Positions 3,001 to 6,000 of a DNA stretch of 27,166 nt are shown here, in pieces. Made by a program: the position numbers. Source of the stretch: a virus (lineage: Duplodnaviria > Heunggongvirae > Uroviricota > Caudoviricetes); the IMG/VR virus record IMGVR_UViG_2526164690_000039. One strand, written 5' to 3'. Positions within the stretch are counted from its first letter, which is position 1; every line of letters begins with the position of its first letter.

Positions 3001-6000
3001 CCGGGCGAGGGTTTGATTTCCGGTGCCTTACCACTGATGAAGGCTGAGGTGCGCCCGGCTGCGTTCAGAATAGCGGTTGCCAGACGATCCGGAATAATGC
3101 TCCTGCGCGCCCATGAACTGAAATGTGTCGGGCGGTTTGATGATACCTGGTTTCCATTCGTTCTCGATGCCGCACCGTAATATCCTGATGCCGGAATATC
3201 CGGATCTTCTGCCGGCGCGTTAGTGGCGGTATTGACGCCGTTACCGTCTGTCATGAAGGGCACAAAATAAACGCCCTCACTCTCCCTGTTTTTATACCCG
3301 CCGTACACGGTGTCGTACTGGGTAGCGTATGTATTTTTCCAGTAATACGTCGTGTCACCACAAACCCACGGCACATCTGCAGCACTGCCACCATGGCACT
3401 GCGCGTTAAACACGGAGAGGTCAGCACGAAACTGTGTCAGCATGGCTGTAAACAGCGCAGGTTGCTGTACGTGGGTGGCGGCGCTCATGTCAAACTCACC
3501 CTGCATCCAGCAGACGGCCAGCAGAACGTTTTTGGGATTTTTCTGCAATGCCGTCTTTTGTGCGGGAAATCAGATCCTGATATAACGGCTTGCCCACCCC
3601 CCAGCGTGCCGAATCCTGACTGGCCCCCCGTGGACTCGCTGAATGTCCCCTCCGCGCCCTGGGTAAATGCCGAACCACCACGACAGCATGGTACCAGCAG
3701 GATCCCCGCGTTATTCGGGATATACGGGAGCAGTTTTTTGGCAATATGTAAACCCTGGCCGACACAGCCGTACTGCCCTTTGCTCAGGTCAGCCCTCGGA
3801 TGATTCAGCGTACTCATATCCTGCACATCATGCAGACAGTGGTCAGCCGGAATAATATCGTTATATCTGCAGGCAGCCCCGCCCGGCGTCACTGTACTGC
3901 GGCGCGCCAGCTGTTTAATGCGCGGATCCGGAGCATCGTATGAATCCGGCAGCGGAAGCCCTTCACCGTAAGCCCTTCACCGTAAGCCATGGCATTGGAT
4001 TGCCCGGCCAGTACGATGACGTAGTACCAATCCGGCTCAGATGAAGGGCCGACCTGTGGCTCTCCTTCAATAGCCACCGCCTACATCAGTGTGTACGGCG
4101 TAATGGCAACCGGTCCGCCGTATGGCTGCCAGCCCTCTTTCAGTTTGTGTGTCAGCTTTTCCGCAAGGTCTGACGGCGACGCCGCCCTGACAACATCGTA
4201 ATGTTTAATCGACATCGAATTTCTCCCGTGTAGAGGAACAGAGTTAAAAAAGCCGGAAGCGGAATCAAATCACAGGATGACCATCTGCCAGTGGCAGGTC
4301 ATAAAAAAAAGGCTGCGCAATGCGCAGCCAGAACTCACAAGGAAAATGATAAAAGGAATAACACTAGTGATGTACGCATGGCGCCTCCCGCTAAGTTCTG
4401 CAATGATCAAACAGAACTCACTACGTGCCCTTAAAACTCGATCATTTAGCCCCTCCAAGGAGGATTCACCATGCGGTTGATTTTTTAATAAACAGTAAAC
4501 AAAAAAGTCAAGAATTATTCATTCTGTTCTTTCATCATCGGCCACAGCAATACCACAATGCCGCAGACCAGAGCGCCATCAGTCAGTACCAACATTATCC
4601 TGCTGGTGAAATCCATCATCACCATCACCAAAAGCAGGATCACAACAGCAAGCAGACACAGTTTATAAAACAATGTTCAGAAAACGCATTCAGCATGCCT
4701 AAGGTTCTATTCCTACGAATAGCCAACTTGCAACTTAAAATATTATTTATGCAGCCAATTAAATTCTGGTCCTTACAATATCAACCTGAAGATTCTTATC
4801 TTGTGCTGATTGATAAATGACAAACCTTTTACTACCTGCATTGAAAGAAGTAGTCAAAACCAGACAATTATCATAACGAGCAAGAACATAATACCAACCA
4901 TCATTATAATTAATCATTTCATATTCTTTCTTAAACTGTGGTTTGTAATATCCTGTCAGAAATGAAAAAAGCCAAAAATATGCCACAAAAGCAATCATCA
5001 CAATCTCAAAAAAATGTTTTTTTATAAATGGCTTATCATAGAAGCATGATACCGATAAAAATCGCCCATAAGATCTTATCGAAATTGTAACCGCCAGCGC
5101 AATCGCTGCTGACAGTAGCAAAAGAGGTACCTGAATCTTCTGTCTCAATATAGAAAACTCAATAATTGCCGGCACAAACAATAATTCCACAGCAAAATAA
5201 AGGCGAAATACATTTAGCTCTTGCATAGAATGTTTTCTTTTCACTGCGAAAAAGAATACAACACCAATACCCCAACCGATAAGAAATATAGCAATGACGA
5301 TAACTGCAAAAAATAAACTTCTGGCAACATCATCAACACCTGCACCTACAATCCACCATGGGAAGCCGTAGTAAAAAGAAGTACCCCATCCATAGAAATA
5401 AGCACTCCCCCATCCAAGGCATCCCATGTAGGCAATAAAAAGTGAAGAACTCCTGAGCAGCGCACCATCCTTCATAACCACCCCAATACAAGATGATAAC
5501 ATTGGCTTACAACTCATAACAAAAGCAATTCAATGCCGTCAAGAGGTTACAGGCTAAAAAAACTCTATTACATAGCAGCCAGCATGTTTACCGTACAAGT
5601 ACAACTCAGGGCATAAAAAAACCCACTCGGCAGCGGGTTTATACATTTTTTACAACATACCAAATTTGCATGAAGTATATGGCTTTTAATCCAGTTTTGC
5701 AATATTTTGCTGTAAAAATGCTGCCTTTTGTTTTGAACGTGTTCTCGTCACAAGCAATAAAGCATCACTATCAAGCTGTAGAAAAATGTGCTTCATTGCA
5801 ACCCAGCGTTCAGTAAATGTCTCGGACCAGTTTTTTGTTGTCACTCCCACCAATGATGCCAGTGTCTGGTATTCATAGGCCTCACGCCCTGCAAGTTCGC
5901 TCTTCACATCCTGTGCAGCCAGCCAGATTAACGTCTTCAGGCGATCCAGTGTCTTACCTGCAATTTTTCTGTTACTTAACAAATCTTTAAACTCGCTCCA

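Follow-up and report, generated by a model that had tools for sequence, protein, structure and literature searches.

A TfpB-family membrane protein gene in the late-region cargo slot of a lambdoid phage sequence: identity, relatives and possible function

Introduction

What does a lambdoid phage encode between its Q antiterminator gene and its lysis genes when the slot that holds the toxin genes of Shiga toxin (Stx) phages is filled by something else, and what might the product do? The question is raised by a 27,166-nucleotide stretch of DNA from a virus of the Caudoviricetes (IMG/VR record IMGVR_UViG_2526164690_000039), which we call the window, meaning the whole stretch at its full length. 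Its minus strand carries in this position an uninterrupted open reading frame (ORF) of 252 amino acids (aa) at 4759..5517, for which a computational analysis is presented here. The ORF belongs to the TfpB family of predicted inner-membrane proteins, is dispensable for phage growth and has relatives on virulence plasmids and chromosomes of several mucosal pathogens.

Results

A gene of the TfpB family under purifying selection

The first residue of all full-length enterobacterial homologues (19/19, each of 236-238 aa) aligns with M15 of the ORF, and a Shine-Dalgarno-like GGGGTGG run lies just 5' of the M15 ATG. On these two grounds we take the coding sequence (CDS) to be 4759..5475, with 5475 as the probable true start. 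The gene and its alternative starts are as follows:

4759..5475, minus strand: TfpB-family inner-membrane protein CDS, 238 aa (evidence: ORF, homologue N-termini, PHROG 1521, PF27470, AlphaFold2 model and the ratio of nonsynonymous to synonymous substitution rates, dN/dS)
5502, minus strand: alternative upstream ATG, 247 aa, chosen by the Prokaryotic Genome Annotation Pipeline (PGAP)
5517, minus strand: alternative upstream ATG of the longest ORF, 252 aa

The first-pass annotation had described the gene as AT-rich, and its GC content is indeed 36.1%, against 46.1% for the window, 56% for the neighbouring esterase gene and 50% for the lysis genes (flanks overall, 45-56%). Stop codons are frequent in DNA of such composition, the encoded protein has more than 100 homologues in a large protein database, and selection has acted on its sequence: the S. 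enterica and S. arizonae orthologues give a dN/dS of 0.07, at an unsaturated dS of 0.77, and the ratio does not exceed 0.25 in any other homologue pair, where dS is saturated. Thus, the ORF is no chance product and is a genuine gene under purifying selection. A lipoprotein signal was considered for the protein and dropped, the Cys of 'YMGC' not being conserved.

The protein is 99.6% identical to the product of coliphage 434 gene 68 (CPT_434_68, UMO75332.1, 'putative membrane protein'), is present in RefSeq as WP_001302581.1 and matches PHROG 1521 (phrog_1521, 'unknown function') with an E-value of 6.9e-154. The Pfam family TfpB (PF27470, version PF27470.1) is precomputed for a protein 99% identical to the query (P0001) and for nearly all homologues; PF27470 is newer than the copy of Pfam that we scanned, which therefore gave 0 matches. 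The NCBIfam scan returned only CrgA at E 0.42, which we treated as noise. As had been anticipated, the protein shows no homology to phage structural or lysis proteins: neither Pfam nor NCBIfam gave a match to a structural or lysis family, and the PHROG family is one of unknown function. By its sequence, the gene is essentially phage 434 gene 68, and it is already catalogued in the phage 434 record, RefSeq, Pfam and PHROG.

When 50,697 phage records were searched with tblastn, the gene was found in two phages only, 434 and 2B8, the latter represented by two records. The window and phage 434 share 98.2% DNA identity over 7.1 kb. Among complete E. coli genomes, megablast detected the region in 700 of 5,426 (~13%), mostly of Shiga toxin-producing E. 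coli (STEC) serogroups, and the carriers have a median of 5 and a maximum of 10 matching places.

The gene is dispensable for phage growth

Dispensability can be read from the records of phage 434 and its mutant 434B. The segment 41277-45846 of the phage 434 record, within which gene 68 lies, is replaced in 434B, whose own record holds a DLP12-type Q, nmpC::IS5 and lysis genes instead, with no TfpB homologue, DUF3927 gene or esterase; a tblastn search with the TfpB-family protein likewise found no match in 434B. This clear-plaque mutant was grown by liquid infection, and its virions were purified (PMC9119081). Since 434B propagates and forms virions without it, the gene is dispensable for phage growth and represents accessory cargo, or a moron. 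The hallmarks of a moron that we observe are the deviant base composition, the position between conserved modules and the dispensability for lytic growth.

Predicted structure and topology

An AlphaFold2 model built from 37 diverse sequences reached a predicted local distance difference test score (pLDDT) of 83.7 and a predicted template modelling score (pTM) of 0.77. It contains helices at residues 3-36, 47-79, 88-111, 116-137 and 155-181, followed by five beta strands within 184-235. We have fair confidence in the fold that the model suggests, namely five transmembrane (TM) helices and a C-terminal beta domain of ~55 residues that is weakly SH3-like. The number of lysines plus arginines, averaged over the 37 members, is 1.9 in the N-terminus, 2.7 in loop 2 and 4.2 in loop 4, as compared to 0.1 in loop 1 and 0.8 in loop 3. 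Because of this positive-inside pattern we predict, with fair confidence as well, an inner-membrane protein whose N-terminus is cytoplasmic and whose beta domain is periplasmic.

Conservation peaks in TM1, in periplasmic loop 1 (YYGFPWW..G.DD.ARSL) and at the junction between TM5 and the beta domain (GxYKPQxKKEY), all of which are predicted to face the periplasm; the least conserved parts are loop 3, TM4 and cytoplasmic loop 4. This distribution points to a functional surface that would also be periplasm-facing.

A Foldseek search of PDB and BFVD gave nothing at E <=0.001; small SH3-like domains matched the C-terminal 50-60 residues, but only weakly. A sequence-profile search of PDB returned only Ninjurin at E ~0.9, which was rejected.

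The first-pass annotation had proposed a polytopic membrane protein of roughly 240 residues with about six TM helices and a soluble C-terminal domain of unrecognisable family, and had called for structure prediction with a remote-homology search. The polytopic nature and size hold (238 aa), with five helices in the model in place of six. A C-terminal domain is predicted, of only ~55 residues, and the family is recognisable, as PHROG 1521, PF27470, 434 gene 68 and an ORF of Moraxella bovis. The remote-homology search thus yielded full-length similarity to a Moraxella protein, but no structural relative in PDB or BFVD at the threshold given above.

Homologues in Moraxella and the wider family

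The M. bovis homologue is a 261-aa ORF located between two oppositely oriented pilin C-terminal segments, which we take, from the Pfam name, to be the published tfpB of the pilin inversion region. BLASTP aligned it to residues 9-236 of the window protein (228 aa) with 27% identity and an E-value of 8e-23, and hhalign aligned the two end to end over 227 columns with a probability of 99.7%. A profile made from enterobacterial sequences only retrieves a Moraxella-type protein (P0130) at E 2.3e-19. The homologues of M. equi, M. oblonga and M. lacunata each adjoin a complete type IV pilin gene; the M. lacunata locus has a Piv-like recombinase gene as well, and its TfpB ORF is truncated to 195 aa. 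The Moraxella loci show the anatomy of the classical pilin inversion region. No pilin N-terminal motif was found in any frame of the window.

Among 1.84 billion representative proteins, a profile search retrieved 73 clusters only, those outside Enterobacterales including members from Neisseria dumasiana, N. arctica, Gallibacterium, Avibacterium, Actinobacillus and Pasteurella. A scan of genomes added M. bovis, M. lacunata, M. equi, M. oblonga, Conchiformibius, Aggregatibacter, Glaesserella and others. The Pasteurellaceae and Neisseriaceae homologues are orphan genes amid housekeeping genes, sometimes two per genome, and the more distant enterobacterial homologues are likewise orphans. Pilin linkage is a trait of the founding member, not of the TfpB sequence family. 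Aggregatibacter strains carry two TfpB copies at separate loci. In Glaesserella parasuis (locus L015, 8001-11044), the homologue stands beside cdtC/cdtB/cdtA-like genes, and in another Pasteurellaceae locus (L010, 8001-12475) beside an RTX-type exporter pair; in both cases the neighbours were judged from N-terminal sequences alone.

Homologues in prophages, plasmids and chromosomes of Enterobacterales

In a Yersinia prophage, the homologue follows immediately after Q. A prophage of Enterobacter cloacae (CP017475.1; L049, 1162-6532) has the order antiterminator, stxA, stxB, TfpB homologue (53% identical), holin-like gene, lysozyme gene and Rz-like gene, and its StxA is 86% identical to Stx1A of phage H-19B. 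By this arrangement, the TfpB gene can share its slot with Shiga toxin. Mutual exclusion with stx, suggested by the fact that only 3 phage records hold the gene, is refuted by this E. cloacae Stx1 prophage.

On plasmids of enterotoxigenic E. coli (ETEC) that encode heat-labile enterotoxin (LT) and STb (L034-L037, 2987-5714), a homologue with 59% identity adjoins eltAB; it lies ~870 bp upstream of eltA and is divergent from it, with the STb gene near and insertion sequence (IS) elements around. Its place, together with DNA similarity to the window that sets in 4 nt before a conserved TTGACG box, hints that the LT-I cassette derived from a lambdoid late region. Shigella virulence plasmids carry the homologue among IS elements in 106 plasmid records, including pWR501 (L046, 6001-6717) and pCP301. 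Another E. coli allele belongs to an island that also encodes an ABC exporter, a glycosyltransferase and Bor.

The Salmonella homologue STM1630 (L002, 4349-9195; 238 aa, 45% identical) lies between sseJ and steB/frmR, on the frmR-frmA-trg side. In Citrobacter rodentium (L048, 2863-4717), the homologue and a split LpxR gene are divergently oriented, with frmA-like and trg-like genes adjacent, and this locus looks like a decayed form of the LpxR-[Q]-TfpB arrangement of the window. The C. rodentium and Salmonella loci both seem to be what remains of a lambdoid LpxR-Q-TfpB late region.

The 3-kb contig JAIITD010000172.1 (L024), filed as 'MAG: Veillonella sp.' (a metagenome-assembled genome), contains the TfpB gene, a DUF3927 gene and a 62-aa ORF, both small ORFs being 100% identical to those of the window. 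It is almost certainly mis-binned E. coli prophage DNA.

Most simply, the family can be regarded as typical cargo of lambdoid late regions and what is left of them, which would explain why its members so often adjoin toxin and effector genes. What the comparison adds to the existing catalogue entries is that, by sequence, the cargo gene of STEC prophages and phage 434, Moraxella TfpB, Salmonella STM1630 and the ETEC and Shigella plasmid copies are one family.

STM1630 is the sole family member with experimental data. It is induced in macrophages and was chosen for study from macrophage RNA-seq data, and the -10 box of its promoter is disrupted by two single-nucleotide polymorphisms in strain D23580 (PMC6785131). 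It belongs to a gene set controlled by virulence regulators, together with Salmonella pathogenicity island 2 (SPI-2), pag and ugtL genes (PMC2639726). In a screen, its deletion mutant was hypermotile, with 1.72x swimming and 1.62x swarming (PMC4219756).

The Q-to-lysis slot and its neighbours

Gene order is given here along the minus strand. Upstream lie NinH, a short Q remnant, LpxR (on the opposite strand), YlcG and Q; from Q onwards come the PR'-like promoter, the tR'-like terminator, the TfpB gene, DUF3927, the STnc100-like region, the terminator at 4329-4311, DUF1737, the esterase, the holin, the lysozyme and Rz. The features are:

5686..6459, minus strand: Q antiterminator, Q82-like (PF06323, E 1.7e-91; annotated as Q82-like in the phage 434 record)
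5674..5702, minus strand: PR'-like late promoter TTGCAA-17-TATACT, overlapping the end of Q (promoter scan; position fits a lambdoid late promoter)
5619..5640, minus strand: tR'-like intrinsic terminator, 9-bp stem and T run (terminator scan; the phage 434 record has a terminator at the same place)
4515..4673, minus strand: DUF3927 small membrane protein, 52 aa, second gene of the cassette, 'TciB' in the phage 434 record (ORF, PGAP, phage 434 annotation)
4300..4504, minus strand: STnc100 small RNA (sRNA)-like element, third element of the cassette (Rfam RF02076, 40.4 bits against a gathering score of 47, E 1e-6, model positions 1-206)
4311..4329, minus strand: intrinsic terminator closing the cargo cassette, 8-bp stem with 7 GC pairs and T run (terminator scan; annotated in phage 434)
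2394..4215, minus strand: DUF1737 (4081-4215) and frameshifted NanS-p-type SASA esterase/DUF6645 (Pfam; PGAP 'frameshifted'; intact in phage 434)
768..1977, minus strand: lysis cassette of class II holin, signal-anchor-release (SAR)-type lysozyme RrrD and Rz (ORFs; PGAP and phage 434 annotation of the near-identical region)

The position proposed in the first-pass annotation, between a Q-like gene with its terminator and the lysis cassette, is confirmed by the PF06323 match, the tR'-like terminator and the holin, lysozyme and Rz genes. Its comparison with the toxin slot of Stx phages also held when the window was aligned to the Stx1 phage H-19B: homology is lost across the slot and resumes at window position 4208, 3' of the H-19B stx1AB site. 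The gene therefore occupies, as judged by this alignment, the slot equivalent to that of stx1AB in H-19B, and the replaceable cassette extends roughly over 4209-5620.

The STnc100 match is full-length yet below the gathering score, and it contains the terminator at its end. The region overlaps a 62-aa ORF (4270-4458), which the phage 434 record gives as a membrane protein, and the cassette's third element may be an sRNA instead of a protein. An obligate partnership of the TfpB protein with DUF3927 or the 62-aa ORF was considered and dropped, since outside E. coli and E. albertii prophages neither accompanies a TfpB homologue. The origin and meaning of the label 'TciB' for the DUF3927 protein could not be traced in a literature search. 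The esterase/DUF6645 gene (2394-4077) is split by a frameshift, and PGAP labels it 'frameshifted' in a near-identical locus. A search for tRNA genes in the window found none.

The gene for LpxR, a lipid A deacylase, lies at 6849-7808 on the plus strand, between a lambda-type Q N-terminal fragment and the module of YlcG and the Q82-like Q. The Q remnant is just upstream of NinH, at ~7950-8020, and the same arrangement is seen in phage 434. From the Q remnant and the LpxR arrangement shared with phage 434, it seems that the entire LpxR-YlcG-Q-cargo module replaced an older Q.

Expected expression

In lambda and phage 82, the Q-modified polymerase reads through this late terminator. Since the TfpB gene is the first after PR'/tR' and Q-modified polymerase reads through, strong late transcription from PR' through tR' under Q is expected by analogy; the function of 5674..5702 as late promoter is inferred from the same lambda and phage 82 biology. 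Two further candidate promoters lie close to the gene:

5513..5542, minus strand: candidate sigma-70 promoter, TTGACG (5542-5537), 18-nt spacer, extended -10 TGtTATGAG (5521-5513) (read from sequence)
5522-5493, minus strand: second candidate promoter, TTGTTA-18-TATCAT (promoter scan)

The stretch over which the window DNA resembles the ETEC plasmid copy starts at 5546, 4 nt upstream of TTGACG, a box that the plasmid copy retains. An own promoter probably travels with the gene.

Discussion

On balance, we lean towards seeing the gene as a selected TfpB-family moron whose product is an inner-membrane envelope factor of lysogenic conversion, not needed to make or release virions. It would be transcribed when Q lets polymerase pass from PR' through tR', and probably from its own promoter too; at the outer face of the cytoplasmic membrane, the protein would attach to a conserved component of the host and thereby alter an envelope property relevant in the animal host. 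We prefer lysogenic conversion because homologues outside phages persist under strong purifying selection, because the Salmonella homologue is wired into virulence regulation, because homologues are carried by Shigella and ETEC virulence plasmids and because the other late-region cargo, which the window and the phage 434 annotation show to be LpxR, the sialate esterase and Bor/Iss, consists of host-interaction factors. A role towards the host is also supported by the homologues next to stxB (E. cloacae), eltAB (ETEC), LpxR (C. rodentium) and sseJ (Salmonella). As to the component bound, a type IV pilin-like subunit, of a pilus or of the type II secretion pseudopilus, is our first candidate given the Moraxella context and the adjacency of the ETEC copy to a type II-exported toxin, although this particular target is unlikely to be the right one.

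Several points weigh against a lysogenic-conversion factor of this kind. No function has been shown for any TfpB-family member, and our literature search on WP_001302581, TciB/DUF3927, tfpQ/tfpI and Moraxella pilin inversion found nothing on function. Deletion of STM1630 caused no defect in intramacrophage replication (PMC6785131), and STM1630 is not among the altered-motility mutants of the follow-up study (PMC4534456). Adjacency to toxin genes may only reflect the shared phage cargo slot. Linkage to pilin genes is confined to Moraxella, the Pasteurellaceae, Neisseriaceae and enterobacterial copies not being located by pilin genes. Topology and fold are predictions only, and the first AlphaFold2 run, on a shallow alignment of 21 close homologues, reached a pLDDT of only 62. 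Regarding expression, the number of promoter-scan matches was not above shuffle expectation, and the own promoter was called from consensus matching and a conservation boundary.

A bolder view is that TfpB-family proteins form an unrecognised class of accessory factors, exposed to the periplasm, whose genes accompany those for toxins and effectors in mucosal pathogens, and that they are functionally linked to this virulence cargo. Such factors would act on subunits of type IV filaments or type II secretion, or in periplasmic assembly or release of toxins. The examples would be the copies after stx1 in Enterobacter, by eltAB in ETEC, by the cdtCBA-like genes in Glaesserella, in the sseJ-steB interval of Salmonella, on Shigella pINV and at the Moraxella pilin switch. 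We hold this to be quite improbable.

The protein could instead exclude superinfecting phages or defend the cell by blocking entry of phage DNA, colicins or toxins, as do HK97 gp15, P22 SieA and T4 Imm. Such a role would fit a mobile, AT-rich unit of one gene that occurs in prophages, on plasmids and in small islets, is dispensable for the phage and encodes an inner-membrane protein with a conserved, predicted periplasm-facing surface. However, between Enterobacteriaceae and Moraxella the periplasmic surface has hardly changed, which is not what an arms-race interface would show, and carriers have the median of 5 and up to 10 matching places mentioned above, so that repeated lambdoid lysogeny is not prevented. 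In addition, the gene lies in the late operon and not in the immunity region, the Salmonella orthologue is a stable chromosomal gene with a dN/dS of 0.07 that is co-regulated with virulence genes (PMC2639726), and PADLOC, with E up to 1, matched 0 families for the window protein, its two small neighbours and M. bovis TfpB. Exclusion thus appears unlikely to us, and we judge a direct role as accessory factor of type IV filaments (pili or type II pseudopili), binding the membrane-embedded N-terminal helix of pilins, to be similarly so. This role would resemble that of TfpY/FimB-like proteins without assuming homology to them. It is suggested by the name-giving member, which lies between two invertible pilin genes in M. 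bovis, M. lacunata, M. equi and M. oblonga, by the concentration of conservation in TM and periplasmic-face segments, and by the ETEC copy that adjoins eltAB; LT is exported by type II secretion. Size and layout, with a polytopic N-terminus and a periplasmic C-terminal domain, are also like those of TfpY-like proteins, yet the architecture is not, since the latter have 3 TM helices and a large alpha/beta domain (PMC11841053). Moreover, a pilin gene adjoins the Moraxella copies only, the M. lacunata copy is truncated (195-aa ORF), and the window holds no pilin-like motif.

We consider it very improbable that the protein sets lysis timing or primes the membrane, as an antiholin-like regulator or a helper in the release of toxin or virions. 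Its gene is the first after the late promoter and terminator, upstream of the pinholin/SAR-endolysin cassette, and in the E. cloacae phage it stands directly between stxB and the holin gene. In the window, however, a terminator and the 1.9-kb esterase gene separate it from the holin, many homologues have no lysis genes nearby (Salmonella, Shigella plasmids, Pasteurellaceae, Moraxella), and there is no match to a lysis family in Pfam, NCBIfam or PHROG, nor any BFVD match at E <=0.001. Mutant 434B is uninformative on a lysis role, its lysis genes having been replaced too. That the ORF is a decaying or non-functional hitch-hiker is hardly credible: a frameshift interrupts the neighbouring esterase gene of this prophage, truncated fragments account for many database entries and no reproducible phenotype is known, but throughout Enterobacterales, at 45-68% identity, the ORF has stayed intact, dN/dS is 0.07-0.25, and motifs are conserved as far as Moraxella and Neisseria.

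No family member has a known function or a structural relative, despite wide carriage, and the gene is found also in a founding phage of molecular biology (434), on Shigella and ETEC virulence plasmids and across Salmonella. It sits in the most strongly induced cargo slot of lambdoid phages, once shared with Shiga toxin. If the envelope, secretion or toxin release were indeed altered by its product, the gene would be a widespread and overlooked virulence or fitness determinant; if nothing measurable came of it, it would simply be one more conserved moron. New in this work are the topology and fold model, the stx1-adjacent copy in an Enterobacter prophage and the dispensability argument from 434B. 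The link between the STEC prophage gene, 434 gene 68, TfpB and STM1630 provides tractable single-copy systems, with 434 in K-12 and with Salmonella.

Comparison with known systems

Among lambdoid morons and exclusion genes, lambda Bor and Lom, HK97 gp15 and P22 SieA resemble the window gene in being non-essential cargo of deviant GC content with an own terminator and an envelope product. They differ in that no sequence or fold similarity was detected and in that those genes lie elsewhere in the phage genome.

The TfpY/TfpZ/TfpX proteins (FimB-like; Pseudomonas, Dichelobacter, Neisseria, Acinetobacter) are likewise ~240-aa polytopic inner-membrane proteins with a periplasmic C-terminal domain and helix-concentrated conservation (PMC11841053). 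TfpY-like proteins, some of which are pilin-linked, have three N-terminal TM helices and a mixed beta-sheet/alpha periplasmic domain of ~150 aa (PMC11841053). Membership of the window protein in the TfpY/FimB family was rejected on architecture alone, its five helices and 55-residue all-beta domain contrasting with three TM helices and a large alpha/beta domain.

M. bovis TfpB shares with the window protein a common AY.YGWG..YG(F/Y)PWW..ARSL motif and a similar C-terminal beta domain, YY(V/I)L...(I/V)L. The Moraxella gene lies between pilin segments by the Piv recombinase gene, whereas the window gene is located in a phage late operon. STM1630 is of the same family, but is a stand-alone chromosomal gene and not part of an intact prophage.

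The closest counterpart is phage 434, which has LpxR, YlcG, the Q82-like Q, the terminator, the gene itself, DUF3927 'TciB', the small ORF, the esterase, the pinholin, the SAR endolysin and the spanins in the same order. The esterase is intact in 434 and frameshifted in the window, and the rest of the window is a mosaic that is elsewhere closer to Stx1a phages.

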